A stretch of DNA of 64,000 nucleotides, taken from a virus. Taxonomy: Duplodnaviria > Caudoviricetes. The stretch covers positions 6,708 through 70,707 of the IMG/VR virus record IMGVR_UViG_2974531088_000001. One strand, given 5' to 3'. A model generated the notes under the pieces. The model did not search any database and had not been told where the DNA came from. It worked only from the letters and a program-made list of their open reading frames with translations. Below, one piece after another: positions 611 to 41,118 of this stretch. Each line of letters opens with the position of its first letter. The stretch's first letter is position 1. The translations under genes and the position numbers were made by a program.

Positions 611-2067
611 TGAAGTTCGCAACCGTTGAGGCCGTGCCCCTGGTCAAGACCGGGACGTGGAACGGGTCCACTGGTGAGAAGGCAATCACCAAGGAAGACC
701 TTGAAGCCATTGTGGAAGCTCACGAGTCCGCCGTTCTTGACAAGGGTGTGCTAAAAAAGGGCCACCTTGACCCGCGTCACCAGAACCCGGCGTGGGACGG
801 CGAACCGGCCTATGGTCAGGTGGACAACCTCCGCTTGTCTGAGGACGGCGAAACGCTGCTGGGTGACTACATCAACGTGCCGGAAGACCTGGCCGAATCG
901 CTGCCGTCTGCGTACCCCAACAGGTCCGCGGAAATCGCGTGGGGCGTCAAGATCAAGGACGCAGCCGGGAAGGTAGCCAAGGAATTCAAGGCAGCCCTTG
1001 CCGGTGTCGCGCTGCTGGGGCGCACACCCCCGGCTGTAAAGGGGCTTGGTGGCCCGGTGTCCGCATTCTCTGCCGGGGCTGTGGAGTTTGACAGCATCGG
1101 CGTGTTTTCCATGGTTACCGAGTTCTCTCTGCCCGGTGGGCTGACCGCCAACGCGCTGCGTGAAGCACTGTCTACGGCGATCACCGACGAATTCAAAGCC
1201 AAGCGCACGCTGGACAGCGAATATGGCGAGTGGCCGTGGATGATCGACTACGACGACACCAAGGCGTGGTTCCGGGCGAACGGCGGCGTGTTCCAGGTTG
1301 GCTACACCGCAAGTGACGCCGGGGTTATCACGCTGAATGACGACGTGACCGAGGTAATCGAAAAGCGCACCTATGTTCCCGTGCCCGACACGGCAACCGT
1401 CCCACAAACGCAGCTTTCAGAAATGGAAGCTAACAACGTACAGGGCGCGTCAAGCGCCACAGAGAACGCTACTAGGGAGGAATCCTCCATGTCCGAGTAC
1501 CTTAAGAAGCTCCGGGACAAGCTGGGCTTGCCTGAGACGGCCACGGAGGAAGAAATCCTTACCGCCGCCGCTGAGGCCGTCCCCGCACCCGCTGCCGACG
1601 ACAAGGGCGCTGCACCCGCTGCCGCCCCCGCCGCTGCCCCCGCCGCCACCACGGCTGAGGTCACCGAACAGACCAACAACAGCGCTGGCAAGCACGCAGC
1701 CGGAACCGCTGGCGACGGCGAGCCGGAAACCGTGATCCTGTCCAAGGCGTCTTTTGCTGAGCTCATGGAAGACAGCAAGCAGACCAAGGCACAGCTTGGC
1801 ACCCTCATGGAGCGCGACCGCAAGGCACGCGTTGAGGCGCTGGTTACCAAGTTCTCTGCCGCCGGCAAGATTCACCCCTCGGAAAAGTCCTACTTCACTT
1901 CCCAGTTGGAGAAGAACGAGGCCGAGACGGTGGCACACCTGGAAGCACGCCAGGGCATCCCCGTTGCCGCTATCGGTTCCGAGAATGTGGATCCGGTGGC
2001 ATTCAGCGAAAACCAGAACTTTGACGACGCGTTCAAGTTCTTCAACCTTCCGATTGGAGGCAACTAA
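610..2067 (+). CDS. Capsid maturation protease-scaffold (Mu gpI-like)
   Basis: ATG 610 overlaps the upstream TGA. N-terminal domain (…KGHLDP…GQVDNLRL…YPNRSAEI…LAGVALLG) is followed by an Ala/acidic helical scaffold. Sits upstream of the capsid genes. Confidence 0.8.
   Translation: MKFATVEAVPLVKTGTWNGSTGEKAITKEDLEAIVEAHESAVLDKGVLKKGHLDPRHQNPAWDGEPAYGQVDNLRLSEDGETLLGDYINVPEDLAESLPSAYPNRSAEIAWGVKIKDAAGKVAKEFKAALAGVALLGRTPPAVKGLGGPVSAFSAGAVEFDSIGVFSMVTEFSLPGGLTANALREALSTAITDEFKAKRTLDSEYGEWPWMIDYDDTKAWFRANGGVFQVGYTASDAGVITLNDDVTEVIEKRTYVPVPDTATVPQTQLSEMEANNVQGASSATENATREESSMSEYLKKLRDKLGLPETATEEEILTAAAEAVPAPAADDKGAAPAAAPAAAPAATTAEVTEQTNNSAGKHAAGTAGDGEPETVILSKASFAELMEDSKQTKAQLGTLMERDRKARVEALVTKFSAAGKIHPSEKSYFTSQLEKNEAETVAHLEARQGIPVAAIGSENVDPVAFSENQNFDDAFKFFNLPIGGN
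1396..1431 (+). promoter_or_regulatory. Late-type promoter inside the protease gene
   Basis: ACCGTCCCACA-N19-GAAGCT; same spacing as five other copies. Confidence 0.55.
1489..2067 (+). CDS. Nested scaffolding protein (internal in-frame start, Mu gpZ-like)
   Basis: AGGGAGG-N8-ATG in frame with the protease; MSEYLKKLRDKLGL…. Confidence 0.65.
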   Translation: MSEYLKKLRDKLGLPETATEEEILTAAAEAVPAPAADDKGAAPAAAPAAAPAATTAEVTEQTNNSAGKHAAGTAGDGEPETVILSKASFAELMEDSKQTKAQLGTLMERDRKARVEALVTKFSAAGKIHPSEKSYFTSQLEKNEAETVAHLEARQGIPVAAIGSENVDPVAFSENQNFDDAFKFFNLPIGGN

Positions 2068-2070
2068 GCC

Positions 2071-2451
2071 ATGGCACAGTTCCAGAACTCAGTTGATGTT
2101 GTCCGCGACCCGGGCAAGAACTACACCGCCAAGACCGGCGCCGCAGCCGTTCGCGGCTCGCGTTTCGTGTCCTACATTGCCGGTGGCACCCGTCAGGTGT
2201 CCAAGGTAGCTGAGGCCACCGCCACGTCCGCCGTCGTCGGTGTCGCCAAGTACGACGCCGCAGCCAACAAAGAGGTGGGCATCCTCAAGGGTGGCGCGGC
2301 TGGCGTTATCGCTGGCGGTGCTGTCGTGGCCGGTGACCGCGTTGTCTCTGACGCGCAGGGCCGTGCTGTAAAGGCCGCGGACGGCGTTCCGTTCGTTGGC
2401 GTCGCCTACACGGATGCCGCCCTCGGCGCCGTCGTCTACATCGACTTCTAA
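2071..2451 (+). CDS. Capsid cement/decoration protein (DUF2190-like)
   Basis: Small G/A/V-rich beta protein (…GAVVAGDRVVSDAQGRAV…) between scaffold and major capsid protein. Confidence 0.75.
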   Translation: MAQFQNSVDVVRDPGKNYTAKTGAAAVRGSRFVSYIAGGTRQVSKVAEATATSAVVGVAKYDAAANKEVGILKGGAAGVIAGGAVVAGDRVVSDAQGRAVKAADGVPFVGVAYTDAALGAVVYIDF

Positions 2452-2475
2452 GCCAGAAAGGCACGGAAAAACATA

Positions 2476-3372
2476 ATGAGCTCTCTCATGTACCCGCCCC
2501 AGGGTCCGACTGTCAACGGTCAGCAAATCACCGTTGATTGGGCACTCAAGACGCCCACTTTCATTTCCAAGGCCGTGACCCTTGCCCTGCAGGGACGGTT
2601 CATTTCTGACTACATTTTCCGCGCCGGTAACGCCGCCGCTGGTGCTGTGGTTTACGAACGGACCCTCGGCCCGAATGAGAAGTACCCGGCAAAGGGCGAC
2701 GTTGAAATCGTCAACCCGGGCGACGAGTTCCCGCTTGTGGACGTTGGCGAGGTTTCCAAGGAAACCGCCATTGTTGACAAGTTCGGTGCCGCCGCGCTGG
2801 TTACTTACGAACAGATTCGTCGTAACCAGACGGACAAGGTGACTGAGGCAATCGTCAAGATTTCCAACGCGATCCTTCGGAAGACCGACAACCGCGCCAT
2901 GGCTGCGCTGGCCAACGACCCTGACAAGCTGGTTGTGGCTGCTGCTTCCGGCTGGGGCACGGCTGACCCGGACCCGTTCGCTGACATCGTTGGGGCCGTT
3001 GGTCTTGGCGAGGGCCAGGAACTGGACTACAACCTCGATACGGTTCTTATCAACCCGCTTGACGCCGCCAAGCTGCTCAAGAACCGCGACATTCGCGACC
3101 AGTTGCCCCGCGAGGCTGTGGCATCCAACCCGCTGCTGACCGGACGCCTGGAAGGTCTTGCCGGCCTGTCCTGGATTCAGACCAACCGCAAGGCGCCGGG
3201 TTCGCTTTACATTCTGCAGCGCAACATCACGGGTGTGCACGCTGAGGAATTGGCGACCTACACCCGCAACATTGATGAAGCCGCCAACGAGCGTTGGCGC
3301 GTCCAGGGTGCCCGTGTTTCGGTGCCCATCATCACTGACCCCAAGTCCATTATCGAACTGACGGGAATCTAG
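2476..3372 (+). CDS. Major capsid protein (HK97 fold)
   Basis: 298 aa; position after scaffold and decoration genes; ends PIITDPKSIIELTGI. Confidence 0.85.
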   Translation: MSSLMYPPQGPTVNGQQITVDWALKTPTFISKAVTLALQGRFISDYIFRAGNAAAGAVVYERTLGPNEKYPAKGDVEIVNPGDEFPLVDVGEVSKETAIVDKFGAAALVTYEQIRRNQTDKVTEAIVKISNAILRKTDNRAMAALANDPDKLVVAAASGWGTADPDPFADIVGAVGLGEGQELDYNLDTVLINPLDAAKLLKNRDIRDQLPREAVASNPLLTGRLEGLAGLSWIQTNRKAPGSLYILQRNITGVHAEELATYTRNIDEAANERWRVQGARVSVPIITDPKSIIELTGI

Positions 3373-3374
3373 CC

Positions 3375-3767
3375 ATGGCCCCCACTGCTGCCCGTAAGGC
3401 ATCGGACGCGCTCAAGGGCGCACCGGCACCGGTTGAGGAAACTCAGCCCAAGTTGACGGATCAGGAACCCACCGAGGCGGAAGCCAAGGCCGCTGCTGAG
3501 AAGGAAGCCGCTGACAAGGCGGCTGCCGAGGAAGCGGAAGCCAAGGAAGCCGCCGAGGCCAAGGTCGCCGCTGACGTGGAGGCCACCAAGGCTGACGAAC
3601 AGGACGACAACGGCGACTTGGTGGAAGCCACCGTCGTTATCGCCATGTTCAACTACTTTGGCGAGGACGGCACCCACCTTTCTGCCCTCAAGGGCCACAA
3701 GGTGCACGTTGATGAAGACACCGCCGCGCGCGGCGTCCGCATCGGCGCGCTGACCGTCCAGGACTAG
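3375..3767 (+). CDS. Acidic Ala/Glu-rich head-associated protein
   Basis: AAEKEAA-type low-complexity linker plus a small C-terminal domain; follows the capsid gene. Confidence 0.65.
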   Translation: MAPTAARKASDALKGAPAPVEETQPKLTDQEPTEAEAKAAAEKEAADKAAAEEAEAKEAAEAKVAADVEATKADEQDDNGDLVEATVVIAMFNYFGEDGTHLSALKGHKVHVDEDTAARGVRIGALTVQD

Positions 3768-3785
3768 CCCGAAAGGCTAAACAAA

Positions 3786-4304
3786 ATGGCTGAGGCCACA
3801 ACGTGGGGTGTCAGCGTCGCAGATATTGCGGCGCTGGCCCCCCATATTGTTATTACCGAATCCGAGGCGGACCCGGCACCCGTGCCACCCGGCCCGGACC
3901 CATTCGCGACCAACGGCGCCACGGTGCGCAAGCTGACCACCAACCAGGTCAACGGGTTCATCAACGACATAACCGCCATGGTGGATATGCGGATCCATGA
4001 GCGCGCGCGCATTGCCGACCCGGTGTTCAGCGCCAAGATTGCTGCCGCCGCCAAGGACGTGGTGAAGAACGGCGCGGGGTCTTACCTCGTGGCTGCCGCG
4101 TTCCCCATCAAAGCCGGACCCAACGAGAACACCAGCTATGCCGCGGAACTCTGGAACCGCTACAAGCTGGGGCTTGAGGAACTGGAAAAGGCTATTGCCA
4201 GCTTCATCAAGGACGGCGTTGGACTCACTCCCGTGGAGGAATCGCCGTCGCGGATCACCAGCTTTTTCCCGCCTGTTCGTTTTGCGGACGATATGAGGTT
4301 TTAG
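3786..4304 (+). CDS. Head-to-tail adaptor
   Basis: Position and size; helical with …WNRYKLGLEEL…. Confidence 0.6.
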   Translation: MAEATTWGVSVADIAALAPHIVITESEADPAPVPPGPDPFATNGATVRKLTTNQVNGFINDITAMVDMRIHERARIADPVFSAKIAAAAKDVVKNGAGSYLVAAAFPIKAGPNENTSYAAELWNRYKLGLEELEKAIASFIKDGVGLTPVEESPSRITSFFPPVRFADDMRF

Positions 4305-4307
4305 CAC

Positions 4308-4775
4308 ATGGGCGCCATATTGCACTTCAAGATTGAGGGCGGCGAGGGGTTCAACCTCATGCTTGACAGGTTCCAAGAGAACTTTCAAGAGGCCGAACCC
4401 GTTTTTGAGGCAATCGCGGATTATCAAAAGGAAATCTGGCGGCGGCAATTTGCCCAAGAGGGTGCCTATACGGGCACCACTTGGGCGGCGCTCTCACCAC
4501 CGTATGCAAAGTGGAAGGCGCGGCACTTCCCGGGCAAGCCCATCTTGCAACTGTCCGGTGACCTCATGGAGTCCCTAACGGAACGCCCCTTTGGTGTGGA
4601 CGAAATCACCCACAACCAAGCCGTAATTGGCACAGCCGTGTCATATAGCGGCTGGCACCAGCACGGCACCGAAACCATGCCGGCGCGCCCCATCGTGCAA
4701 CAGCCGTCTGAGGCTGACCGGCTGCAATACGCCAAGTTCCTCCAGCAATGGATCGTGAAAGGACACATCAGCTAA
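4308..4775 (+). CDS. Virion morphogenesis / tail completion protein (Mu gpG-like)
   Basis: WAALSPPY…ILQLSGDLMESL…IGTAVSYSGWHQHGTETMPARPI signature. Confidence 0.8.
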   Translation: MGAILHFKIEGGEGFNLMLDRFQENFQEAEPVFEAIADYQKEIWRRQFAQEGAYTGTTWAALSPPYAKWKARHFPGKPILQLSGDLMESLTERPFGVDEITHNQAVIGTAVSYSGWHQHGTETMPARPIVQQPSEADRLQYAKFLQQWIVKGHIS

Positions 4776-5392
4776 TGCTTGGACCGGAAGGCGTGGCCCG
4801 TGCTTTGGTGTACCGGCTGCAAGAGAGATTCCCCGGCAAGCTCGCAGAGTTGCGGGCCAGGCTGGCCATAGACGCCGCCGAGCTCCCGGAACTGGCGGCA
4901 CTGTACGCCCACGAGGTGGACCTGCGAGCCGTCAACGAGTACCCGTTCCTATCGGTGGTGGAACTGGACACGTCCGGGCAGCTTGGCAACAGGCAAGTGG
5001 ACACGGACACCGACTATGACGAATACAGCTACCGCTACCGCATGCGCGTGTTCGTGTGGTCCATGGCGTCCGCGCACATTGAGACGGACCTGCTGCGCAA
5101 ACGGCTGGCGCTGGCCGTCCGTGAGGTGCTGTTGAATGACAAGATTCTCTACGACCTCAACGGCCAGTATGCCGAGGTGGACCCTAAGACCCTCAAAGAG
5201 TCCTTTAGTGGGGTGTCCGACATAAAGGACAGCCAGTTCCTTGGGGCGGCGTATCTGGAATTCGAGATTGTCACCCAAGAGACGCTGGCGAGCTTCCAGG
5301 GGCGCGTAAGTGACGACCCGGCGACGATCATTCCCGATTACGGCACCGTAGGCGAGGGCGACACGCACCCCGTCCCCCAACCGGAACCCTAG
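4775..5392 (+). CDS. Tail terminator-like neck protein
   Basis: ATG overlaps the upstream TAA; position before the sheath gene. Confidence 0.6.
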   Translation: MLGPEGVARALVYRLQERFPGKLAELRARLAIDAAELPELAALYAHEVDLRAVNEYPFLSVVELDTSGQLGNRQVDTDTDYDEYSYRYRMRVFVWSMASAHIETDLLRKRLALAVREVLLNDKILYDLNGQYAEVDPKTLKESFSGVSDIKDSQFLGAAYLEFEIVTQETLASFQGRVSDDPATIIPDYGTVGEGDTHPVPQPEP

Positions 5393-5404
5393 ACAAATGA
5401 ACCT
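5369..5404 (+). promoter_or_regulatory. Late-type promoter, leaderless
   Basis: CCCGTCCCCCA-N19-GAACCT-N6-ATG(5411). Confidence 0.6.
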
Positions 5405-5410
5405 ATAGCC

Positions 5411-5686
5411 ATGAGTGAAAAAGTGAGGGTTCATAACCCCAACCCATTTGAAGTGGTCATTGACCTTGAGGGGCACAGCCTTGACGGGCACAGTGCTACG
5501 GACGTGAGCCGGGACACCCTCACGGACCACCTTATTGACACCGGCCAGTTGCTGATCATGCACCCGGCCCCGGCTGAACCATCGACGCCCGTACTGGTGA
5601 CACCCGCCGTGGTGGAATCCAAATCGCGGCGCCGAAACAACAACACCGAAGCCCCCGGCAACGGTTCTGAGACAGGAGAAAACTAA
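5411..5686 (+). CDS. Small hypothetical protein preceding the sheath
   Basis: ORF abuts the sheath ATG; typical small gene before a myovirus sheath. Confidence 0.65.
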   Translation: MSEKVRVHNPNPFEVVIDLEGHSLDGHSATDVSRDTLTDHLIDTGQLLIMHPAPAEPSTPVLVTPAVVESKSRRRNNNTEAPGNGSETGEN

Positions 5687-7134
5687 TGGCTATTGGTGTT
5701 GAGGTCAGCACCTCATTGCGTACCGGCCCCACGAACCCGGGTGCTGTTTCCGGGCGTCTGCAAATCGCCGGTATCACCGAACGTGGTTCGTCCACCGAGT
5801 CCGTACTGGTCAAGTCGCTTGCGCAGTACGAAAGCCTCTACGGCACACGTCAGGCTTACGCGTCCAACATGTACGATTCCGCGCGCACTTTCTTTGAGGA
5901 AGGCGGCTCGGAACTCGTTGTTTCGCGTGCCGTTGGTCCGGCTGCAACTTCCGGCTTCCTGGTCCTCAAGTCCACCGCCGGCACCGTGGACACGCTGCGT
6001 GTGGCTGCCCGGAACCCCGGCGCGCATTCGTCCGCTATCACCGTTGAGGTGACCGTTTCCGGTGGCCTCTACACCATCACGGTTCGGCGTAGCTCTGAGG
6101 TCATTGGCCTGTTCGCCAACCTGACCACCCCGGCTGACGCCGTGGCCGCTGCATCGTCCAACCCTCACGTGGTTATCACGGACATGGGCGACGCGACCGC
6201 AGCACCGGGCAACCAGCCCAAGGCACTGGTCCCCACCGTGCTGTCCGCTGGCATTGACGACCGCGCCGCCGTTACGTCCACCATTGTGGCCGCTGCGCTG
6301 AACAACCCCGGCCCCATCACCCGTGGTGCCGCTGTGGCAGCCCCCGGCTATGCTGCATCGGCCATTGGTGCTGCACTCATTGCCCACGCCAAGGCGAACA
6401 GCAAGATTGCTTTGCTGTCCCCGGCGTCCGGCGCCAACGCTTCCGCGGCTGCCGCTGAGGCAAAGGCGCTGGTTGGTGCTGACGGTGCCTACGCTGGCGT
6501 GTTCTACCCGCACATCGTTATTCCTGACGGCAACGGCACCCGCACGCTGTCGCCGGAAGCCTACGTTGGTGCCGTGCGAGCTCGCAGCCACGTCAACATT
6601 GGTTTCTGGGCTGTCCCCGCCGGCGAACGCGCCCTGCCGCGCTGGATCGTTGGCACCGTCGCGACGATTGACCGCCCCACCAACAACACGCTTGCTGATT
6701 CCCAGTTGAACGGCATTGTGACTGTTGGCGGCAAGCCCCGCCTTTATGGTTGGGCTTCGCTGGCGACCGACCGCGACAACCTGGGCTTGCTGTCCGCTCA
6801 GGACTCGCTCAACAGCCTTGCCGTCCAGGTGGAAGACCTCCTCGAGGAATTCGTTTTCTCCACCATTGACGGGCGTGGCATCCTGTTGAGCCGCGTGGAG
6901 TCCGCAGTTGTTGGACTCTTGGATCCCATTGCGCAAGCAAATGGTTTCTACCCCAAAAAGGTGGGGGATGAAATCGTTGACCCGGGTTACCGGGTCACGG
7001 CTGACGAAACGATCAACACCGCCACGAGCATTGCCAACAACGAGGTCCGCGTTTCCCTCAGTGTTCGCCTTGCTCCCACGGCGGCGCTGCTCAAGGCCGA
7101 AATCATCAAGGTTGCCCTTTCGGCAGCCGTGTAA
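5686..7134 (+). CDS. Contractile tail sheath protein
   Basis: 482 aa; …IAGITERG…YESLYG…ARTFFEEGGSELVVSRAV…; C-terminal VSLSVRLAPTAALLKAEI. Confidence 0.9.
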   Translation: MAIGVEVSTSLRTGPTNPGAVSGRLQIAGITERGSSTESVLVKSLAQYESLYGTRQAYASNMYDSARTFFEEGGSELVVSRAVGPAATSGFLVLKSTAGTVDTLRVAARNPGAHSSAITVEVTVSGGLYTITVRRSSEVIGLFANLTTPADAVAAASSNPHVVITDMGDATAAPGNQPKALVPTVLSAGIDDRAAVTSTIVAAALNNPGPITRGAAVAAPGYAASAIGAALIAHAKANSKIALLSPASGANASAAAAEAKALVGADGAYAGVFYPHIVIPDGNGTRTLSPEAYVGAVRARSHVNIGFWAVPAGERALPRWIVGTVATIDRPTNNTLADSQLNGIVTVGGKPRLYGWASLATDRDNLGLLSAQDSLNSLAVQVEDLLEEFVFSTIDGRGILLSRVESAVVGLLDPIAQANGFYPKKVGDEIVDPGYRVTADETINTATSIANNEVRVSLSVRLAPTAALLKAEIIKVALSAAV

Positions 7135-7155
7135 CCCAAGAAAGGAAACAGGAAC

Positions 7156-7563
7156 ATGACAAAGGCAACTAAGCGCCAATTTATTACCACCATCTTGGGC
7201 ATTACCGGCACTTGGGCGAGCTCCACGGGTGGAACCCTCAACGCTGACGTGACGCGTGACTACGACGGCGGGGCGGCGACGCCTGACCTGATTGGTGGCG
7301 CACCCACGGCGGACGACCTGGAACTGTCGCGAGGCTTTGACCCGGTGCGTGACCTCCCGCTGCTCGCAAAGCTGCGCAAGGAAGTGGGCCGGGGCCGGTA
7401 CACCATCACCAAACAGCCCACGGACGCCAACTTCACCAAGGTGGGCACGCCGCTGACTTACGCCAACTGTGTGCTTATGTCCGTGAATGACCCGGAATCG
7501 GACGCGAATAGCTCCGACATTCCGCTGGTCACTCTCAAGTTCGCTACCACGGGCGCCGTCTAG
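7156..7563 (+). CDS. Tail tube protein
   Basis: 135 aa directly after the sheath, with RBS AAAGGAAA. Confidence 0.8.
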   Translation: MTKATKRQFITTILGITGTWASSTGGTLNADVTRDYDGGAATPDLIGGAPTADDLELSRGFDPVRDLPLLAKLRKEVGRGRYTITKQPTDANFTKVGTPLTYANCVLMSVNDPESDANSSDIPLVTLKFATTGAV

Positions 7564-7579
7564 GCCGGTGGCAGAACGT

Positions 7580-7675
7580 CCCACCCGCGTGCTGGCGCGG
7601 GTGGGCTGAAATGGTGGGACGGGGCACGTCCCGAGTTGTCCGTGCTTGGACACGCGCCCCGTCCCACACCCATTT
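7580..7675. repeat. Two tandem GC-rich inverted repeats
   Basis: CCCACCCGCG/CGCGGGTGGG (7580-7605) and GTGGGACGGGGC/GCCCCGTCCCAC (7614-7667). Confidence 0.8.
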
Positions 7676-7693
7676 AACAAATCAGGTGAGTCT
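7658..7693 (+). promoter_or_regulatory. Late-type promoter for the chaperone/tape-measure operon
   Basis: CCCGTCCCACA-N19-GAGTCT. Confidence 0.55.
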
Positions 7694-7748
7694 GTATGCA
7701 GACCACCCCGCACAAGGCGGGGCGGCGGACTGAACGGACAAACAGGCC

Positions 7749-8300
7749 ATGACTGAAACCACCGAAACCACTTACGGCACCATCCCGGCTGCTCCCGTCG
7801 CTGCTGACGCACCCGCACCGGCTTTTTACACCCCCCAGCACACCGAGCCGGAAGACCGCGAGGAAACCCCGCTTGACGCGCTGCGTGCTGAGGCCAAAAA
7901 GTCCCTTGAGCGGTTCGTCACCTGGAAGGTAGACGGACGCGACGGCTGGGCTGCTACGTTCTCCACGATCATTGAGCCGGAAGACGTGAAGCGCTACCAG
8001 AAAAATGCGCAGGGCAAGCGTAAGAACGTCCAGGACGCGGACCAGATCGTGGCCGCCGGCCAGCCTCTCGTTGAGAACAACCGCGCCATTCTGCGCAACG
8101 GCAAGAAGGTTGCCGCCAGCGACGGCACCGACCTGACGTTCGGCCACAACGAGTTCCAGGAACTCTTTGGCGGCACGGGCGCACTGGACGCCGTGCGCGC
8201 GTTCCTTGGTGCCGGTCAGTTGCTCTCGTGGGGCGGCGCACTGTTCGAGGAAGCCGGGTATGGGGCCGAGGTTGAAGCCGTGGACCCTCTCAAGTCCTAG
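7749..8300 (+). CDS. Tail assembly chaperone (G-like)
   Basis: Lies between the tube and tape-measure genes. Confidence 0.8.
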   Translation: MTETTETTYGTIPAAPVAADAPAPAFYTPQHTEPEDREETPLDALRAEAKKSLERFVTWKVDGRDGWAATFSTIIEPEDVKRYQKNAQGKRKNVQDADQIVAAGQPLVENNRAILRNGKKVAASDGTDLTFGHNEFQELFGGTGALDAVRAFLGAGQLLSWGGALFEEAGYGAEVEAVDPLKS

Positions 8301-8476
8301 CTGAGTTTTTCGAGGAAAGCCCGTGGTTTCGCCGCATGGCGTTGACCGCGGACATTCTCCGACTAGACCCCGTGGTGGTGGTGGACGAACCGAACAGGTT
8401 TTACAGGATCGTTCGCCAAGCCGCCGCCAACGTGGTTGCCGAGGCTAGGGAAAAAGCAAAACAAACGAAAAAGTAA
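8276..8476 (+). CDS. -1 frame extension of the tail chaperone (T-like; …QVLAEFFEESPWFRRM…KQTKK*)
   Basis: Open -1 frame from 8276 to TAA 8474-8476; fills the gap before the tape-measure gene. Confidence 0.65.
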   Translation, partial: SRGPSQVLAEFFEESPWFRRMALTADILRLDPVVVVDEPNRFYRIVRQAAANVVAEAREKAKQTKK

Positions 8477-8492
8477 GCAATGAATTGGAGGG

Positions 8493-11400
8493 GTGCCCGT
8501 GGGGACCACTGAGGAACGGGTTGTCCTTACCGTTGAGACTAAGGACGAACTCACGGCACCCCTTCAAGACATGACCAAAAAGGTGGAAGCCGCCAGCGAC
8601 CGGGTGGCCAAAGCTTCCCAGCGCGAGGCGTCCGCCGTCGAAAAGGCCATGGGCCAGGTCACCAAGTCCACCACCACCGTGGCTGGCGGGTCCGAGAAAA
8701 TGGCGAAAGCCTTTGATCAGGCAACAGGCGGCATGGGGTCCAGCGCCGGCCGCGCGGGCGACGTTATCAACTCCCGGCTTGGCGGCGCCGTTGACCGGGC
8801 CATGCGCAATGTAGCTGCCTCAATCCGGGCAGCCACCCCCGGCATTATCGCCAACGCCGAACGCATCGGCAGCGGCATTGGTTCGGCCCTTGCCGGGGCC
8901 GTCAACACCTCAGTGACCGTTGGCGACAAAATAGGCACCGCCTTGAGTTCCGGCATGGAAACCGCCGGCAAGACCATGGCCATTGGCGGGGCTATCGTGG
9001 GCGGCGTCGTCGCCAAGGCCATTAGCGGTGGCATCAACCGCCAACTGAACATTGAAGACGCCCGGGCTAAGCTGTCCGGTCTTGGCACGGACGCGGCCAC
9101 CGTGAACAGCATCATGGATTCGGCCCTAGCTGCCGTCCAGGGCACCGCGTTTGGGCTGGATTCGGCAGCTACCGCCGCCGCGTCTGCCGTGGCCTCTGGC
9201 ATCCAGCCAGGCAAGGATTTGACCCGCACCCTAAAGCTTGTGGGCGACGCTGCCACCATTGCTGGCACCGACTACGGCGAAATGGGCGCGATCTTCAACA
9301 AGATTTCAGCGTCGGGCGTGATCCAGGGCGAGGAACTGGCGCAGCTTGGCGACCGAGGCATCCCCATTTTGCAGTTGCTTGCCAAGGAAATGGGCGTTAC
9401 CGCGGCTGAGGTCAAAGACCTTGCCTCCAAGGGCAAGGTTGACTTTGCTACCTTCCAGAACGCCATGGAAAAGGGCATGGGTGGCGCTGCCCTCAAGTCC
9501 GGCGAAACGACACGTGGCGCTATGGCCAACATGGGCGCGGCACTCTCTCGCGTGGGTGCCACTCTCACGGCTGGGTTCTTCCCGCTGGCAGTTGGCGGCT
9601 TCAACGAGGTAACCAAGACCCTTGACGGCATGAATAAGGAAATCAAGCCAGCCGCCACGGCGTTTGGTACTTGGTTTGCTGGCAAGGCTGGCCCCGTGGT
9701 GGCCAACTTCTCACAGAACGCCCTCAAAGCCTTTGGTGAAGTAACGGGCGGTTTCGTGGCCATGCGCGCCGCCTACAACTCAGCCGACGACGGCATCACG
9801 TCCAGTGGGCTGCCCGGTTTCATGGAACGCATCGGCATTGCCGCTGGCAAGGTCCGCGACGCCGTGGCTGGCATGAATCCGAACCTTGACAACCTCAAGG
9901 CGCTGGTTGGTCCACTGGCTGGCATGTTCTTGGCCATGGGTTCCGGCCTGTTGGGTAACCTGCCGATCATTGGCCGGTTCCTGCCGGTGCTGAACCCGTT
10001 CTTGGGCATCCTGCTGGGTCTTATCGCAGCGAGCCCGGAACTACGCCGTGCCCTTGGGGACGCATTCAACGCCATTGTTCCCGCGCTGGCTGCCGTAGCG
10101 GCTGCCTTTGCCCCGCTGGTGCCCATCCTGGCTGACGTGGTGGCGTTCGGCGTCGACTTGTTGGTCAACGTGCTGGACAAGCTTGTGCCCATGTTCCCGG
10201 TCCTTGTGCCGCTGGTGGTGGCCTTTGTCGCCGCCGCCAAGCTCGCTGGCCCGGTCATGGCTGCGTGGCGGACGGGCGTAGTGCTGTTCACCGCCGCACA
10301 GGTGGGCTTCCAAGCCGCTATGGGAATCAGCACGGTGCTGACTCAAGCGCAGACCGCAGCGACCGAGCGCGGCACGGCTGGATTTATCGCCATGAAGGTT
10401 GCGCAGTACGGCGCCGTAGTGGCGTTGGCCGTGGCCACCGCAGCGCAGTGGGCTTTCAACGCCGCCCTAACGGCTAACCCCATCGGGCTGATTATCGCCG
10501 CCATTGTGGGCCTGGTAGCTGGCATCATTTGGGCCTATAACAACGTGGGTTGGTTCAAAGACGGCGTAGATGCCGCAATGCGCTGGATTGGCGAGGCGTT
10601 CCAGAACGTAGTCAACTGGTGGAACTCCGATTTCATGCCGGCCCTGTCCGCCGTGGGCCAATGGTTCGTGGACGTGTTCACCAACGTAAGCACATTCCTG
10701 ACGGACACTTTCACGAACATAGGTAACTGGTTCCGCGATTTCATCGGCTTTTTCGTTGACGGCTGGGGCATGCTGGTTGATTTCTGGAACGGCATTTTGC
10801 TGCCAGCAATCCAAGCCGTAGGCGATTTCTTCGCGCCGATCCTTGACTGGATTTCCCGCCTGATTTGGAACGCCACGACCATTGCCGTGGCGCTGTTCCT
10901 CAAGCTGGTGGATTTCTGGAACATGGTCTTGCTCCCGGCCCTGCAAGCCGTAGGTAACTGGTTCCGGGACATTTTCACCTGGATTTACGAAACCATCGTC
11001 CGGCCCGTGGTGGACGGCATAGTTGGCCTGTTCCGCATGGTGGTGGACTGGTGGAACATGACGTTCCTGCCAGCCCTCCAGGCTGTCGGTCAGTGGTTCA
11101 GCGACATTTTTAGCTGGATTTACAACACCATCATTCTGCCGTACATCACTTTTTGGATTGATGCATTCCGTATGGTCACGGACTGGTGGAACATGACGTT
11201 CCTGCCAGCGCTGCAAGCCGTGGGCCAGTGGTTCTCCGACGTGCTGAACTGGATTTACAACGTGATCGTGAAGCCAGTTATCGACCTTGTGGTCGGTGCC
11301 TTTACGGCCCTCACGGACTGGTGGAATAACACCCTTTCGCCCATGATCACCACCGTAGCTGGCTGGTTCCGGGACGGAATCGGTAACGCGATTTCAGGGG

Positions 11401-12029
11401 TCAAGGGCTTCATTGACGACCTGATAAAGGGCTTCGAGGGCTTCATTTCCTTCTGGACGGCGACCCTCAAGCCGGTAGCTGACGCCATAGCTGAAATCTT
11501 CCGCGGCATCGGTGATGCTATCGGAAACGCCCTCGGCAAAATGGGCGAATTCATGAACAACCCTCTTGGTGGCATCCAAGATTGGCTGAACATTGACAAG
11601 GACGAAAACGGGCAAGGTGTCATGCCCGGGGCATCCGGTGGCGGCGTGTTCAGCGGCGGCGGCGTGCTTGGTCTGGACGGCGGCGGCGTCCTCCCGGGCT
11701 ACGCCCCGGGCAAGGACACAATCCCGGCCATGCTGTCCCGCGGCGAGTCCGTGCTGGTCCCCGAGCTCACGGCAGCGATTGGCCCGGGCAACATTATGGC
11801 GCTCAACCGCGAGTTCAGCGGCGGACGCCCTGCCGGGTCCGGCCCGTCCGCGTCGCTGCTGTCCGCAGTAGGCGGCGGCGGTGGCAGCACCATGACGGTG
11901 GAGCGCGGCGCCGTTCAGGTCAACATCACCAACGAGGGCGGCGGGGCTGCCGTTTCGGAAGCTGACATTGAGGCAATCCGCCAAGCGGTAAACGAGGTAT
12001 TCGAGGAAATGCGCAGGAGGGGTTACTAA
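8493..12029 (+). CDS. Tape measure protein
   Basis: 1178 aa, Ala/Gly-rich, with a central tape-measure domain ([12 protein letters not shown]), periodic W/F repeats and a C-terminal [11 protein letters not shown] motif. Confidence 0.92.
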
Positions 12030-12697
12030 TGGTCAGCATCTTGGTGAATAAGCCGCAGTATTGGCACACCATGCGCGTTATCACGCATGACGGGTTTCAG
12101 GGGTCCATGCACTCGACGCCTACGGGCTTTCAGTATGGCGACGTTGCCAAGTACGGGCAGATTGAGCGCGAGGGCAAAAAGGCCATTTCCCGGCTGGTAG
12201 CTCCCGGGCTGCGCACGCTGTCATTCACGCAGACGGTGGCCAGCCTGGACTACCAACAGACCATTGAGCCAATCGTCCAGCGCTTCACCAACTTGTCCGC
12301 CGCCGGCGTCCGGGTCCGCTTCCCCAACGGGTCCGGGCCGTTCGAGCAACCATGCTGGTGGCTCATAAAAGACCTGTCGGTGAACGTCACCCGGCGCGCC
12401 TTGGACAACTCCATAAGCTATGCCACCGTGTCTTGGTCCCTTGAGGAACACGTCGACGTGGCTGCCAACGCGATCCGGCCCCGCCCGGTGCCCAAAGCGC
12501 CCGTAGTGCCGCCCAAGCCGGTGGCCGCGCCGTCGCGCACCTACCGGGTAGTGTCCGGCGATTGCCTGTGGTTCATTGCCCAACGTTTCCTTGGTAACGG
12601 GGCGCGCTGGCCCGAAATTTACAACCTCAACCGGGCCGTCATTGGCGGTAACCCCAATCTGATCTTCCCGGGCCAGGTCTACAGGATTCCGGGGTAA
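12029..12697 (+). CDS. Tail-tube initiator with C-terminal LysM domain
   Basis: [18 protein letters not shown]…IYNLN…[14 protein letters not shown]. Confidence 0.85.
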
Positions 12698-12702
12698 CGG
12701 GC

Positions 12703-14046
12703 ATGGGAAGCACACTTGACGCCAACCGGCTCAAGAACATTTCAGTGACCGGCAAGGGGCTGGACGCTGACCTTGTGGAAGCTTGCATAAAGGCGAGCTT
12801 TTCCACCAGCACGTCCCAGGTAACTGAGTTCTCACTGACGTTCTTGGACACCATGGACCTGCAAACCTTCCGTTCGGGGATCCTCAATTCCGGCGCCACG
12901 GTCAAATATGGTGGCTGGTTCATGGTGTCCCGGGTGGTGTCTTTGGCGTCTGGTCCGGCTGGCCCGGAACTGACGGTAAAAGCGCCGTCCGCGTTTGTGG
13001 AGGGCTTCAAGTCTGAGATTGGGGGCCACTCGTGGGGCGAACAGGACGTCGCCGCGTGGGTGGTAGCTCAAGGCCAGCGCCGGGGCATGGTCACCGTGGT
13101 GCAACCGGGGCTTGGGCGCCGCACCATCGTTAGAGCTGCCTCTGACGGGGACAACAAAGAAAGCACTTGGGACGTCATGGCGGGGCTGGCCACCGCAACG
13201 GGATGCTGGCTGTTCGAGTATGGGTCCGTTATCGTTTTCGCGCGCCCGTCATGGCTCATGAAGGTGGACTGGGGCGGACGGCATTGGCCGTTTTACTGGA
13301 ACCATTGGGCTGACTACAGCGAGGGCTTGCAGGGCATGCCGGCGTACACCAACGACCCGGGCAGCAACCCGGCTGAGTCGTTGACGTTGAAGCTGGTATC
13401 TGCTGACGCTGACGAGGCGCGCCCGGGCGACCGGGTGACCATTGAGGGCGCGGCCGTCGGTTCCATGGCTGGTGAGTGGATCGTTGTAGGGGTCAGCTAC
13501 CCCATGAGCGTCAACGGCGTGGTGACTCTCTCTTGCCAGCGCCCCATTGACCCGGTGATCCCGCCCGAAAACACCGGCACGGGCACCGCCGGCGTGGTAG
13601 CCAAAAAGCCCACCGTGGTGAGTGTGGCCACGAACAAGCCAAGCGCCGGGGCGAACACGTCCGGCGTTGACGCATGGGTTGCCCGGACCAAGGGCCGGTA
13701 CGTTGACACTGACGGCGCCTATGGTGCGCAGTGCGTGGACCTGGTGAGCCTCTATAACACTCAGTTTGTGGGAGGCCGCGCCCTGTTCGGTAACGGCAAT
13801 CAGTGGTACAACAACCCGGCAGCCAGTGCCAGCTACATCAAGGTGCCACCGAGCCAGCGCGCGCAAAAGGGTGACATTGCTTGCTGGGGCGGCGTCTACG
13901 GCGGCGGTTACGGCCACGTGTGCATTGTCATTGAGGATAAGGGCGGTTCTGTCTACACGCTGACGCAGAACCCCGGCCCCGCGCACTTTGAAACCCTCAC
14001 CAAGTCCGGGCTGCAGGGCTACCTCCGACCACGAAAGTTCGCATAA
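12703..14046 (+). CDS. Baseplate hub fused to a CHAP peptidoglycan hydrolase
   Basis: N-terminal hub-like region; C-terminal GAQCVDL…GNGNQW…KGDIACW…YGHVCIV…TQN with intact Cys/His. Confidence 0.85.
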   Translation: MGSTLDANRLKNISVTGKGLDADLVEACIKASFSTSTSQVTEFSLTFLDTMDLQTFRSGILNSGATVKYGGWFMVSRVVSLASGPAGPELTVKAPSAFVEGFKSEIGGHSWGEQDVAAWVVAQGQRRGMVTVVQPGLGRRTIVRAASDGDNKESTWDVMAGLATATGCWLFEYGSVIVFARPSWLMKVDWGGRHWPFYWNHWADYSEGLQGMPAYTNDPGSNPAESLTLKLVSADADEARPGDRVTIEGAAVGSMAGEWIVVGVSYPMSVNGVVTLSCQRPIDPVIPPENTGTGTAGVVAKKPTVVSVATNKPSAGANTSGVDAWVARTKGRYVDTDGAYGAQCVDLVSLYNTQFVGGRALFGNGNQWYNNPAASASYIKVPPSQRAQKGDIACWGGVYGGGYGHVCIVIEDKGGSVYTLTQNPGPAHFETLTKSGLQGYLRPRKFA

Positions 14047-14450
14047 TGACAACCGTTTGGTCTTGGCTGGTCCTGGCTCGCGTTTCCCGGCTGGTCCGGG
14101 ACATTCGGACAGGTGAGGGCACCGACGACGCCCACCGGGGATATGAGGGCATGCGGCTGGCCGTCGCTGAGGCTATCAGTCATGCTTGTGCGCCGGACGG
14201 GCTGAACTGGCCGCGCGAGGATGCCAAGCTGCTGGCTGTCCTGGAACGCGACGGGCACAGCATCCCCGTGGATTCTGCCCCGTATGGTTCAGTGGTGGAA
14301 ACGACCTCCGGGCGGCTGGGAATGGTCACCAATGGTGGGCTTATTGAGTCCAACGGGGATGCCCTGTCCGTGGTGCCGCGCGAGCCGGGGCGCTGGGTCC
14401 GCGCGTGGCTCATTCCCGGCGTTTCGTACTTTGGAAAGGCAACAACGTGA
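14046..14450 (+). CDS. Hypothetical baseplate-region protein
   Basis: Translationally coupled at both ends. Confidence 0.6.
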   Translation: MTTVWSWLVLARVSRLVRDIRTGEGTDDAHRGYEGMRLAVAEAISHACAPDGLNWPREDAKLLAVLERDGHSIPVDSAPYGSVVETTSGRLGMVTNGGLIESNGDALSVVPREPGRWVRAWLIPGVSYFGKATT

Positions 14451-16414: not shown

Positions 16415-16423
16415 ACACCCCAG

Positions 16424-16459
16424 CCCGTCCCACAGTGAAACGCCGTTGCCCTCCACCAT
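16424..16459 (+). promoter_or_regulatory. Late-type promoter, leaderless
   Basis: CCCGTCCCACA-N19-CACCAT-N6-ATG(16466). Confidence 0.6.
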
Positions 16460-16465
16460 GGGGGC

Positions 16466-18403: not shown

Positions 18404-18405
18404 CT

Positions 18406-18693
18406 ATGTTCGCTGATATTCCCTCATGGATTGGCACGGACCTGACGCCGTGGGCGCTGGTCACCCTCGTGGTCCTTTCGATCCTCACGGGCCGGTTCCT
18501 GGTCCCCAAGCTCTACTACAACGAAATCAAGGCTGACCGGGACGCATGGAAGGCCGTTGCTGAGTCTCTGACCGGCGACGTGAAGACCATTAGCGGCGCG
18601 CTGCCCGGGGTGCTGGAAGTGGGCAAGTCCATGGATAAGGTCATGACCGCAGTACGGGAGAAAGCAGACGCGGAACGGGGGTCCGGCGAATGA
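18406..18693 (+). CDS. Membrane protein, lysis cassette
   Basis: N-terminal TM segment WALVTLVVLSILTG followed by a coiled coil. Confidence 0.7.
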   Translation: MFADIPSWIGTDLTPWALVTLVVLSILTGRFLVPKLYYNEIKADRDAWKAVAESLTGDVKTISGALPGVLEVGKSMDKVMTAVREKADAERGSGE

Positions 18694-23042: not shown

Positions 23043-23256
23043 CCCGCTTGTGAAATCCGCCCGGTTTTCCGGTCCGCTGGACGTGATCAATGAAGGGGTG
23101 GATTGTGTCAGGCTTCCACGCCGGGGAATGGCTCACCTCATAGTCGGGGGTGGGCATGTTGCCGCGCATCTTCCAAGCGCGCACGGTCTTGACCTCTACC
23201 TTGAGCAGGTTGGCAATTTCGCTGTAGCCAATCAGGCGAACAGGTTTCTTGGGCAT
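23035..23256 (-). CDS. HTH DNA-binding protein (MerR/AlpA/excisionase-like)
   Basis: LIGYSEIANLLKVEVKTVRAWKMRGNMPTPD…PAW; GGAGG RBS. Confidence 0.8.
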   Translation of the reverse strand: MPKKPVRLIGYSEIANLLKVEVKTVRAWKMRGNMPTPDYEVSHSPAWKPDTIHPFIDHVQRTGKPGGFHKRVA

Positions 23257-23324: not shown

Positions 23325-23360
23325 CCCATCCCCCAACGCCCGGGCGCTGGCTGCCATGAT
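23325..23360 (+). promoter_or_regulatory. Late-type promoter, leaderless
   Basis: CCCATCCCCCA-N19-CATGAT-N7-ATG(23368). Confidence 0.6.
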
Positions 23361-27368: not shown

Positions 27369-28777
27369 TTGCCCCCGGCAGCGAGGTGGTGCGCAAACGA
27401 AACCACCAGCTTGGCAAGGTGCTAGGGCTTGTCCCGGGCGGCTATGAGGTCATGTGGGCCGGGTCCAAAGCCATTACCTATGAAGACGAACACACCATTG
27501 AATTGCGATTCCCCGACGACGAAAGAGAACCCATGGAAAGCTTGAAAGTCATTGCCCTGCAAGCCGAGAACGTCAAGCGCCTTACCGCCGTATCCCTCAG
27601 TTTTGACGGCACCTTGCAAGTCATTGGAGGGGACAACGGCGAGGGTAAATCCTCAGTCCTGGATGCCATTTGGTTGGCCATTGGTGGCCGTCAGGCTGTC
27701 AGCGAGACTAAGACCGTTCGGCCCATCCACGACGGCGAGGACGTGGCCACGGCCACCGTGGACCTTGGCGAAATCATCGTGACCCGGACGTGGAAACGGG
27801 GGAAGGCTGGATCCGTCAAGGTCACCACCCGGGAAGGGGCAGAACACAAGTCGCCCCAAGCGATCCTTGACGCCCTCACGGCCAACGTGGGCATGGACCC
27901 GCTCGCGTTCACCCAGCTATCGGACAAAGCCCAAGTAGCGCAGTTGCTTGAGCTTGTGGACCTTCCTTTCGTCCCGGCTGAGTTGGACGCCCGGTATGAC
28001 GAAACGTTCAAGGAACGGACGGCCGTAAACCGCCGTGTTGAGGAAATCACAGCGCAGCTTTTGGCATTCCCGCAGCCCCCGGAAGGTCTGCCGGACCAAG
28101 AGATCGACGTCGCGGACTTGGTGGCTGAATTGCGCCGGGTGGACAACCTCAACCGCGATTGCCACCGCGCCGAAATGGACTATCAGGAAGCCATAGCCAG
28201 CCGCCGCTACTTCGAGGAACAGCTGGAAGCTGCCAAGAAAGCAGAGGCAGCCGCCGCGCTCGCGCTGGACCACAAGCGCAGCGAGGTGGAAACGTCCCCC
28301 AACGTGGAAGGACTCCAAGGCAAGCTGGACACCGTGGGCGAAACGAACAAGGCCGTGCGTCTTGAGAACCAGCGGCGTCAAGGCGTCAAGCTGCTGGCAC
28401 AGCACAAGGCCAAAGCTCAAGAGCTCACGGCAACCCTGGAAGGCATCAAGGACCAGCGGCGCGAGGGACTGGCGCAAGCCAAGTGGCCCATTGAGGATTT
28501 GGGCTTTGACGCTGACGGCCTGACCTACAAGGGCGTGCCTTTCAAGCAAGCCTCAAGCGCTGAACAGATCAGGGTGAGCATGGCCATGGCCATGGCACTG
28601 CAGCCCACCCTCAAGACCCTGTTCATTCGCGACGGCTCACTCTTGGACGGCAAGAACATGGCCATGGTGGCGGATTTGGCAGCCAAGCACGGCTTCCAAG
28701 TGATCATGGAACGCGTGGGCGACCAGGACAAGGGCGCAATCATCATTGAAGACGGAACAGTAAAGGCAGCATCCTAA
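27365..28777 (+). CDS. Rad50/SbcC/RecF-like ABC ATPase with coiled coil (possible main start 27533)
   Basis: Walker A GDNGEGKSS, coiled coil, signature-like ASSAEQ, Walker-B-like FIRDGSLLD. Confidence 0.85.
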   Translation: MIAPGSEVVRKRNHQLGKVLGLVPGGYEVMWAGSKAITYEDEHTIELRFPDDEREPMESLKVIALQAENVKRLTAVSLSFDGTLQVIGGDNGEGKSSVLDAIWLAIGGRQAVSETKTVRPIHDGEDVATATVDLGEIIVTRTWKRGKAGSVKVTTREGAEHKSPQAILDALTANVGMDPLAFTQLSDKAQVAQLLELVDLPFVPAELDARYDETFKERTAVNRRVEEITAQLLAFPQPPEGLPDQEIDVADLVAELRRVDNLNRDCHRAEMDYQEAIASRRYFEEQLEAAKKAEAAAALALDHKRSEVETSPNVEGLQGKLDTVGETNKAVRLENQRRQGVKLLAQHKAKAQELTATLEGIKDQRREGLAQAKWPIEDLGFDADGLTYKGVPFKQASSAEQIRVSMAMAMALQPTLKTLFIRDGSLLDGKNMAMVADLAAKHGFQVIMERVGDQDKGAIIIEDGTVKAAS

Positions 28778-28779: not shown

Positions 28780-29034
28780 ATGACACTCAAAGTTGACCCG
28801 GCAGAGGTTCCCCGGTTGCTGTCCGCTGTGAAGCGCGGCACCGCGCGCAGTGGACGGCTAAGGGCGCAAGCTGAGGCACGCTATAAGCGCGACCTTGCAC
28901 GGGCCAACGAACCCCGCCGCAAGGCGGTTATAGCGGCACGGGACGCCGGTATCAAACGCGAGGAAATCGCGGCTGCTGCTGGCGTCTCAGTGCCCCGCCT
29001 TTACCAGATCATTGAGGGTTCGCAGGACGAATAA
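28780..29034 (+). CDS. HTH DNA-binding protein
   Basis: GIKREEIAAAAGVSVPRLYQII. Confidence 0.75.
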   Translation: MTLKVDPAEVPRLLSAVKRGTARSGRLRAQAEARYKRDLARANEPRRKAVIAARDAGIKREEIAAAAGVSVPRLYQIIEGSQDE

Positions 29035-39261: not shown

Positions 39262-39263
39262 CC

Positions 39264-39782: not shown

Positions 39783-40648
39783 GCGCCACCATTGCCACTG
39801 TCCTTGCCGCCCACCCTGACTGGGGTTACAAGCCTGTTCTGACCGCTGACGAACTGGGGACCGTAATCCACTGCATGGGCGAGGGGTGCACCTGGAAGGC
39901 TGAAAACCCGCCCCTCACCTTGAAGGGCAACGAGTTGTTCCGCGCCCACCAAGCTGAGGAACTGGCCAAAGCCCTTGAGTTCAAGCCTGTTGAGCTCGCA
40001 ACCAAGCCGCTGACGTTCAACAGCACCCAGCGCCCGGAAGTGTTGCGCCGATTCAACAGCGACATTGAGGGCGGCACGCTCAAGCTCATGCACGATCAGG
40101 GGCTTATCCGGCACCTGACCTTCCGCCCCCGCAAGGGTAATTTCTGCTGGTTCGACATAATCACCAGCCCCGGGCAACTCACCATCAGGGGCGACATGGG
40201 CGACTTTGTATTCGTGCGCGAGCCGGACATGCTGAGGGACTTTTTCAGCCGCGACGTGAACCCCCATTACTGGCGGGAAAAGCTGGTGGCACAAGACGTT
40301 TCCACCCCTGCATGGCAATATGAGCGCGAGCTATACACCAAGTACGTGGCCCAACACTTCTGGGACCGCCGCACCAAGTACACCCCGGACGTGGCAGCCG
40401 CCCTATGGCGCGAAATCCGGGAGACTGGCCCACTGAGTGACTGGGCAGACGCCCACGACGCCACAAGCGCATGGACCACCCTAGACGCGTTCGTTGGCGA
40501 GCATGCGCCCTACCGTTACGAATCCGATTACGAGGAAGACTTCCACGATTACAGCTACCAATATCTGTGGTGCTGCCATGCCGTGCTACTGGCTTGCCGT
40601 GCGTATCGTGAACACCACCGAACCATCAACCAGGAAGTGAGCCAATGA
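39779..40648 (+). CDS. Hypothetical protein (RHLTF…TSPGQLTIRGDMG…DMLRDFF…YWREKL)
   Basis: Resembles a recurrent phage domain of unknown function. Confidence 0.7.
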   Translation: MSATIATVLAAHPDWGYKPVLTADELGTVIHCMGEGCTWKAENPPLTLKGNELFRAHQAEELAKALEFKPVELATKPLTFNSTQRPEVLRRFNSDIEGGTLKLMHDQGLIRHLTFRPRKGNFCWFDIITSPGQLTIRGDMGDFVFVREPDMLRDFFSRDVNPHYWREKLVAQDVSTPAWQYERELYTKYVAQHFWDRRTKYTPDVAAALWREIRETGPLSDWADAHDATSAWTTLDAFVGEHAPYRYESDYEEDFHDYSYQYLWCCHAVLLACRAYREHHRTINQEVSQ

Positions 40649-41061
40649 GCGTTGCACCCATCACACAAGCCGAAATCAACAACGTAGTAGTGACCCGCAA
40701 CGGGGTGACGTTGAGCGTTGGCGAGGAATCCGGGAACGTCATAAAGACCACCGTGGGGGAAGCGCCGGACAAGCTCCGAACCCGCGCCGTCTACCTGTTG
40801 GCACTTGCCAACTACATTGACAACCCCCCGGCGCCGCCGTTCGACTTCCCGCCCAACCATGCCGCTGTGATCACTGGCGAAATCGACGTCGAGGGCTCTT
40901 TCAGCGTCGTGCGCTTCACCCGCCTAGAGGATGCCGGCTGGTTCTCTCGTGGCTTTGGGTGGAAGGACGAGGCAGCTATCCGCCGCGACTTCCACAATCT
41001 GCGTGTGGTCAGCGAGGGCGTCCCCAACGAAACCCCCGCTGAGGAAGCCCCCGGCGAGTAA
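40645..41061 (+). CDS. Hypothetical protein
   Basis: CAGGAAG RBS. Confidence 0.65.
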   Translation: MSVAPITQAEINNVVVTRNGVTLSVGEESGNVIKTTVGEAPDKLRTRAVYLLALANYIDNPPAPPFDFPPNHAAVITGEIDVEGSFSVVRFTRLEDAGWFSRGFGWKDEAAIRRDFHNLRVVSEGVPNETPAEEAPGE

Positions 41062-41073
41062 CGACACCCAAAA

Positions 41074-41118
41074 GCCCCGTGACGCATCCCACACTGTCAC
41101 GGGGCATTTGCGTACCGT
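41074..41118 (+). promoter_or_regulatory. Hairpin plus late-type promoter
   Basis: GCCCCGTGAC/GTCACGGGGC stem; CGCATCCCACA(41083)-N19-TACCGT. Confidence 0.5.

Follow-up and report, generated by a model that had tools for sequence, protein, structure and literature searches.

A strictly spaced upstream element at putative late promoters of an Arthrobacter myophage and its relatives

Described systems and the present phage

The middle promoters of phage T4, which are MotA/AsiA-dependent, keep a host-type -10 and have, in place of a -35, a phage-specific element at a fixed distance from it; the MotA box has its centre close to -30 and is separated from the -10 by 11-13 bp. Ogr of phage P2, a zinc protein, belongs to a different set of regulators. 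Like Mu C/Mor and the RinA/ArpU/LtrC superfamily (PMC3753634, PMC3152322), it is a small protein encoded just ahead of the packaging genes, and these late activators of temperate phages turn on morphogenesis and lysis operons by acting through sites at or upstream of -35. Here we describe an element with some likeness to both kinds of system, found in the DNA of an Arthrobacter myophage (Klausavirus, cluster AR). The stretch analysed, referred to below as the window, comprises 64,000 nucleotides (bases 6708-70707 of the complete 70,707-bp virus record, IMG/VR IMGVR_UViG_2974531088_000001). The element has the consensus (GACAC-N4)-CCSK-TCCCMCA, of which the unbracketed part lies at -42 to -32, followed by a 19-nt spacer and then the hexamer SANNNT; it is specific in strand and position, has promoter geometry, stands ahead of virion and lysis operons, and is absent from host genomes.

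The general plan of the T4 middle promoters is recognizable here, down to the expectation of a phage factor, but the core lies at -38 to -32 with a spacer of 19 nt, and Pfam scans of 77 non-structural open reading frames (ORFs) returned no MotA or AsiA family. A second, middle promoter-like motif of Klausavirus (AAACAGGCAC, 9 nt from the -10, considered further below) is nearer to MotA geometry than is the late motif. The Mu C/Mor, Ogr and RinA/ArpU systems usually work through a single late promoter or a small number of them, as a rule upstream of terS, whereas in the present phage at least seven are spread across the virion module, the first of them past terL. Genes in a position similar to that of RinA/ArpU-type regulators do occur, but neither gp1, gp2 nor the right-end ORFs matched a Pfam family of any kind. 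Leaderless actinobacterial sigmaA promoters (TANNNT) offer a third comparison, since they share with the present sites an invariant A-11 and T-7, a start codon 6-7 nt past the hexamer and the lack of a Shine-Dalgarno sequence; the sites considered here differ from them in the near absence of T at -12, and in having a strict upstream element that host genomes lack. The logic is similar to that of MotA/AsiA and of the late activators, but element, position and spacing all differ, no homologues were detected, and the phage has numerous promoters where a single one ahead of terS might be expected. By the features tested, the system is not one of the MotA/AsiA, Mu C/Mor or Ogr kinds, and is probably not of the RinA/ArpU kind. 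No description of the motif, or of promoters in Arthrobacter phages, was found in the searchable literature (which did not include the ArV1 paper), and the GenBank record of ArV1 lists coding-sequence features only.

Sequence, spacing and spread of the element

An earlier note on the window had listed six copies of CCCRTCCCMCA, each with NANNNT exactly 30 nt from the start of the motif. The spacing is as given at all six, and four of the copies are exact (5369, 7658, 16424, 23325), but those at 1396 and 41083 each carry one mismatch and a further exact copy, at 26440, had been missed. The five exact copies, all on the + strand, compare with 0.37 expected (expected counts in the window were taken from shuffled sequence). 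We reject the additional copy (26440-26450, +) as a promoter: it is internal to a tail gene, and the place of the hexamer is taken by GGTGCT. The pattern TCCCMCA-N19-NANNNT has seven matches in the window, again confined to the + strand, where 0.91 would be expected; every shuffle gave fewer than seven. Annotation gives a rightward direction to all but five of the genes (PMC5513430).

A position-constrained search of related genomes, as suggested in the earlier note, found the motif to be conserved. The seven genomes scanned were those of the present phage, Lymara, Beans, Abba and Vibaki, with the metagenomic genomes G004 and G005; in the last five, the virion module has only 30-58% amino-acid identity to that of the present phage. 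The minimal pattern matched 65 times on the coding strand and not once on the opposite strand. These genomes contain 96 coding-strand cores, and NANNNT stands at a spacer of exactly 19 nt in 65 of them, while no other spacer between 10 and 30 nt is found with more than six. At 34 of the 65 sites a start codon (ATG or GTG) comes exactly 6 nt past the hexamer and at four more it comes 7 nt past, so that 38 have the sequence geometry of leaderless transcripts. The three ATGs to which attention had already been drawn in the window conform to this (5411 and 16466 at 6 nt, 23368 at 7 nt), and neither these genes nor the portal gene, which starts at genome position 2813, have a Shine-Dalgarno sequence.

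A profile of the element was built from 109 non-redundant sites, with A-11 and T-7 fixed by the selection pattern. Positions outside the selection are also conserved: GACAC at -51 to -47 (53-68%), C at -41 (85%) and at -40 (97%), and G or T at -39. Of the TG that marks an extended -10 promoter, G is present at -14 in 68 of the 109 sites (62%) and T at -15 in only nine, and C-1, A+1, T+2 and G+3 are enriched. The profile bears out the earlier placing of the motif at -42 to -32, instead of the usual -35, the element being centred at about -35 to -37. There is no TTGACA-like -35 at 16-18 nt from the -10, but TCCCMCA with its strict 19-nt spacer, and the -10 departs from the canonical TANNNT in having C or G at -12 in 101 sites and T in just one. 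Neither of the ECF-type motifs (GGAAC at -35 and CGT at -10) appears in the profile. Canonical promoters are not in excess in the virion module, a consensus scan of window positions 1-20000 giving two sites against 3.5 expected.

The virion module is 78-86% identical to those of the Klausavirus (cluster AR) myophages ArV1, Lymara, PrincessTrina and DrYang. (Matches to Mycobacterium phages in the similarity search were discounted, being short stretches of the tape-measure gene only.) Five Klausavirus genomes retain every one of the orthologous sites, with spacers that have diverged, and the motif recurs in the Arthrobacter phages Lymara, ArV1, Beans, Abba and Vibaki, in metagenomic contigs, several of which have three to nine strand-specific sites each, and in prophages of Micrococcaceae. 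When IMG/VR was scanned with the upstream half only (GACAC-N4-CCCGTCCCMCA), 49 of the 59 matches had NANNNT at N19, although the hexamer was no part of the query. Among 401 Micrococcaceae genomes, eight encode a homologue of phrog_5264 (gp1 of the present phage), always beside a gene for a mini helix-turn-helix (HTH) protein; in all five of these prophages with enough readable flank, there are 6-11 sites on the strand of the genes within the adjoining 40-80 kb, and none or one on the other strand. The core varies by lineage, being TCCCCCA in prophage G303 and mostly TCCCACC in prophage G088, with the same 19-nt spacing.

In 596 Gb of prokaryotic genomes the full pattern was matched only 10 times. 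Among these is the promoter of the sheath operon in a Pseudarthrobacter prophage; the remainder look like chance, and phrog_5264 was not found in the three genomes with such chance-like matches in which it was sought. The lone match in Actinomadura rupiterrae, with TACGAT followed after 6 nt by ATG, resembles a good leaderless promoter; this genome is without phrog_5264, and the match is probably due to chance. No host regulon was detected in 101 Micrococcaceae genomes, in which a 10-mer plus hexamer gave 45 matches compared with roughly 25 for a reversed control, several of the 45 being conserved coding sequence.

Taken on sequence alone, it is very probable that the sites are promoters. The earlier suggestion of a promoter read jointly by a phage factor and the -10 recognition of host sigmaA is strongly supported as regards the promoter itself (by spacing, strand, position, ATG at +1 and conservation); the mechanism proposed in it is consistent with what was found.

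How the promoters may be read

We consider it likely that the repeated motif marks late promoters of the phage, used by a phage factor together with a sigmaA-type -10. RNA polymerase would start 6-7 nt past the SANNNT hexamer, and at about half of the sites the starting base would be the A of ATG, to give leaderless messengers for the portal, sheath, tail-fibre/lysis and baseplate operons, while the site internal to gene 10 would give a separate scaffold messenger. TCCCMCA at -38 to -32, with CC next to it at -41/-40 and in many cases GACAC further upstream, and 19 nt from the -10, would replace the usual -35. It would be bound by a phage-encoded factor that recruits or re-targets the host RNA polymerase, and the -10 would be read by a sigmaA-type subunit; the avoidance of T at -12 may keep the promoters silent, or at a low basal level, until the factor has been made. 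That the factor should be encoded by the phage is suggested because the host does not use the element, and a sigmaA-type reading of the -10 because of A-11, T-7 and G-14. The participation of such a factor along with a host sigma seems somewhat more probable than its absence, though it is appreciably less secure than the identification of the sites as promoters.

Which protein might this factor be? Besides SSB, only phrog_5264 and phrog_7351 among the non-virion proteins were found in all the complete motif-bearing genomes searched. Three HTH genes had been put forward in the earlier note. One of them (62588-62731, phrog_7351) has this distribution, but that at 28780-29034 is found only in Klausavirus and that at 23035-23256 is less consistent; the list omitted phrog_5264, the most strongly conserved candidate, whose gene is outside the window. 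The C-terminal block of phrog_5264 (RP..RG.P.LSA.GHPSHLAR..DP) is almost invariant. No solved fold was matched by a model of gp1 (pLDDT 80.5), a Foldseek search against the PDB giving nothing at E <= 0.001, a wider fold search reaching no more than Z = 3.4 and a search of the Atlas yielding no usable match; nor did gp1 find a counterpart when PDB sequences were searched with a profile. We also considered gp1 as a small terminase, which is unlikely: its gene and terL are separated by 2-5 kb in Beans, Abba and Vibaki, and a gp2-like gene is directly ahead of terL in Beans and Abba. As for phrog_7351, it was found in Beans, Abba, Vibaki, G004, G005, the G108 provirus and the prophages, in each case near phrog_5264, and its fold matches are to generic three-helix HTH domains only, with non-significant E-values. 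In every genome, the prophages included, the two genes lie close together, at the end of the non-structural block and just ahead of the terminase genes. That one or both of them encode the factor is a tentative proposal, put forward from these patterns of occurrence. Slightly more speculative is the specific version in which phrog_5264 and the adjacent phrog_7351 jointly re-target the host sigmaA polymerase to TCCCMCA at -38 to -32, taking the place of -35 recognition at the 19-nt spacing and giving late messengers that are mostly leaderless, which would constitute a previously unknown late system of Micrococcaceae myophages. In a quick comparison, variation in the core was not matched in any simple way by the GHPSHLAR motif of phrog_5264.

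Several points weigh against this account, in whole or in part. We infer the label 'late' from gene content alone, and the sites at 1396, 7658 and (genome) 6605 are not leaderless. The predicted recognition helix of the phrog_7351 HTH varies among lineages, although the DNA core is nearly constant, and the co-occurrence of the motif with phrog_5264 and phrog_7351 may reflect nothing but descent within one shared virion-module lineage. Moreover, a very divergent sigma could escape both the profile searches and the single fold search made with gp1.

This last point bears on the alternative that survives best, improbable though we judge it to be, namely that a phage-encoded sigma-like protein, too divergent to recognize, replaces sigmaA and reads both TCCCMCA and SANNNT. 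Phage sigmas such as gp55 of T4 are indeed very divergent, many ORFs of the phage belong to no family, and the preference for C or G at -12 is at odds with the sigmaA consensus, which has T there. Six-frame searches of the phage with PF04542 and PF04545, however, revealed no sigma70 region 2 or region 4 (PF08281 gave only an 11.8-bit match, in an HTH gene), there was no sigma factor in the Pfam scans of the 77 ORFs, and none of the fold matches of the gp1 model was sigma-like. In addition, the middle motif confined to Klausavirus has the same geometry of NANNNT, 6 nt and ATG, which suggests one -10 reader for both classes.

The -10 is also central to the less likely idea that there is no special factor, the promoters being read by host sigmaA (or a group-2 sigma) with CCCACA as an odd -35, and their genes being on from the start of infection. 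The invariance of A-11 and T-7, the enrichment of G-14 and the resemblance of ACA to the end of TTGACA all agree with this, as does the looseness of actinobacterial -35 elements; but such sites would hardly be expected to be almost absent from host genomes and yet near-invariant in the phage, nor T at -12 to be avoided. The same genomic surveys make it a little less likely still that an infection-induced alternative sigma, or an activator, of the host reads the motif. The occurrence of the motif across phages of several Arthrobacter and Pseudarthrobacter hosts would fit such a host factor, but the 101 Micrococcaceae genomes have no enrichment beyond conserved coding matches, and the matches in the 596 Gb are chance-like except for that in one prophage. 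Finally, a signal of some other kind, at the RNA level or in DNA (a processing site, a translation element or a site for a structural protein), is very improbable: read-through would transcribe some of the sites, and that at 41083 is in a hairpin loop, but no RNA structure is common to the sites (fold z = -0.05, -0.7 and -1.45), and a fixed spacing to an A-11/T-7 hexamer, with ATG exactly 6 nt further on, is promoter geometry.

Individual sites, a middle class and late gene control

The sites of the present phage (Table 1) come, in order, before the portal gene, gp7, the C-terminal part of gene 10, gp17 and the sheath gene, the chaperone and tape measure genes, the genes for fibre, endolysin and holin, and the baseplate genes. 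The earlier assignment of sites to virion sub-modules agrees with the annotation of Lymara and ArV1.

Table 1. Candidate promoters, associated features and candidate reader genes (window coordinates unless 'genome' is stated)
Feature	Position	Strand	Details
Portal promoter	genome 2771 (upstream of window, end of terL)		hexamer CACCAT, 6 nt, portal ATG
gp7 promoter	genome 6605 (upstream of window)		directly past terminator, ahead of gp7; not leaderless
Promoter inside gene 10 (protease/scaffold)	1387-1431	+	GACAC 1387-1391; core ACCGTCCCACA 1396-1406; hexamer GAAGCT 1426-1431; predicted transcription start site ~1438
Nested in-frame ORF, C-terminal part of gene 10	1489-2067	+	192 aa; ATG 1489 preceded by GGGAGG
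gp17/tail sheath operon promoter	5360-5404	+	GACAC 5360-5364; core CCCGTCCCCCA 5369-5379; hexamer GAACCT 5399-5404; ATG 5411 = predicted +1, leaderless
Strong hairpin	7580-7605	+	11-bp G+C stem, no U-tract (fold of 7560-7660); just past tail tube gene, ahead of chaperone promoter
Tail chaperone/tape measure operon promoter	7649-7693	+	GACAC 7649-7653; core CCCGTCCCACA 7658-7668; hexamer GAGTCT 7688-7693; predicted transcription start site ~7700, gene start 7749
Tail fibre and lysis (endolysin, holin) operon promoter	16414-16459	+	GACAC 16414-16418 (N5); core 16424-16434; hexamer CACCAT 16454-16459; ATG 16466 = predicted +1
Baseplate operon promoter	23325-23360	+	core CCCATCCCCCA 23325-23335; hexamer CATGAT 23355-23360; ATG 23368 is 7 nt past hexamer
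Doubtful site	41083-41118	+	CGCATCCCACA in loop of 11-bp hairpin (~41074-41105; z = -4.5); TACCGT at correct spacing
Intragenic match in SMC-like ATPase gene	28291-28326	+	AACGTCCCCCA-N19-CAAGCT; matching site in Lymara
phrog_5264 (gp1)	genome 1-657 (outside window)		N-terminal CxxC...CxxCxGxG zinc ribbon, variable basic linker, near-invariant C-terminal block
phrog_7351 (mini HTH)	62588-62731	+	42-47 aa three-helix core, acidic tail; candidate trans factor
phrog_597 (Xis/MerR-like HTH)	23035-23256	-	weaker candidate; not found in G006 prophage genome; less consistent

The site inside gene 10 is conserved, including its hexamer, in five Klausavirus genomes, and occupies the same position in the gene in Beans, Abba, Vibaki, G004 and G005. 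The first in-frame start past its predicted transcription start is ATG 1489, which comes 51 nt further on and is preceded by a strong Shine-Dalgarno sequence. The ORF that begins there is probably the scaffold product of the internal promoter, to judge from other protease/scaffold genes of the nested kind. Ahead of the chaperone promoter, the hairpin at 7580-7605 is probably a terminator or attenuator. The baseplate promoter is divergent from the leftward HTH gene phrog_597, and its counterpart in Lymara has AACCAT, 6 nt and ATG. The site at 41083, which the earlier note had included, has the correct hexamer spacing, Lymara retains it with a G-U change in the hairpin stem, and one of the leaderless sites of Abba has the same CGCA variant, but it lies in the loop of a terminator-like hairpin and is the sole site with T at -12, and we regard it as doubtful as a promoter.

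Two sites upstream of the window have features of their own. In the spacer of the portal promoter (positions 2782-2800 of both the present genome and that of Lymara) there is a 4-bp inverted repeat that is changed on both arms, with CCGG...CCGG compared with CCCC...GGGG. At the gp7 promoter (genome 6609-6640) CCCAC of the core can pair with GTGGG just ahead of the hexamer, a feature kept in five Klausavirus genomes.

The middle promoter-like class mentioned above takes the form AAACAGGCAC-N9-NANNNT, often followed by 6 nt and ATG, and occurs between 35257 and 62043 in the window (for example at 38772, 43377, 45774, 48174 and 59664). There are 13 copies on the + strand of the present genome and 13 in Lymara, and the class is found only in Klausavirus, with essentially no copies in Beans, Abba, Vibaki, G004 and G005. 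It shares the -10 and the leaderless geometry of the late class, with an upstream box that is much nearer to the -10.

The control of late transcription in actinobacteriophages is poorly understood. Here there is a sharply defined and widely conserved cis element with exact predicted starts, and two uncharacterised proteins have been shortlisted as its candidate readers; the cis element is well established, and the trans factor is one that we infer from sequence. The internal site suggests that a scaffold gene is nested within the protease/scaffold gene and is expressed from a promoter of its own there, and the lineage-specific cores (TCCCACC and TCCCCCA) provide a natural series for locating the specificity determinant. 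If confirmed, these promoters would improve the annotation of gene starts and operons in at least three groups of Arthrobacter phages and in their prophages, and would offer tight, infection-dependent promoters for Arthrobacter genetics. If the proposed mechanism is true, it might bring to light a novel means by which actinobacterial RNA polymerase can be re-targeted.

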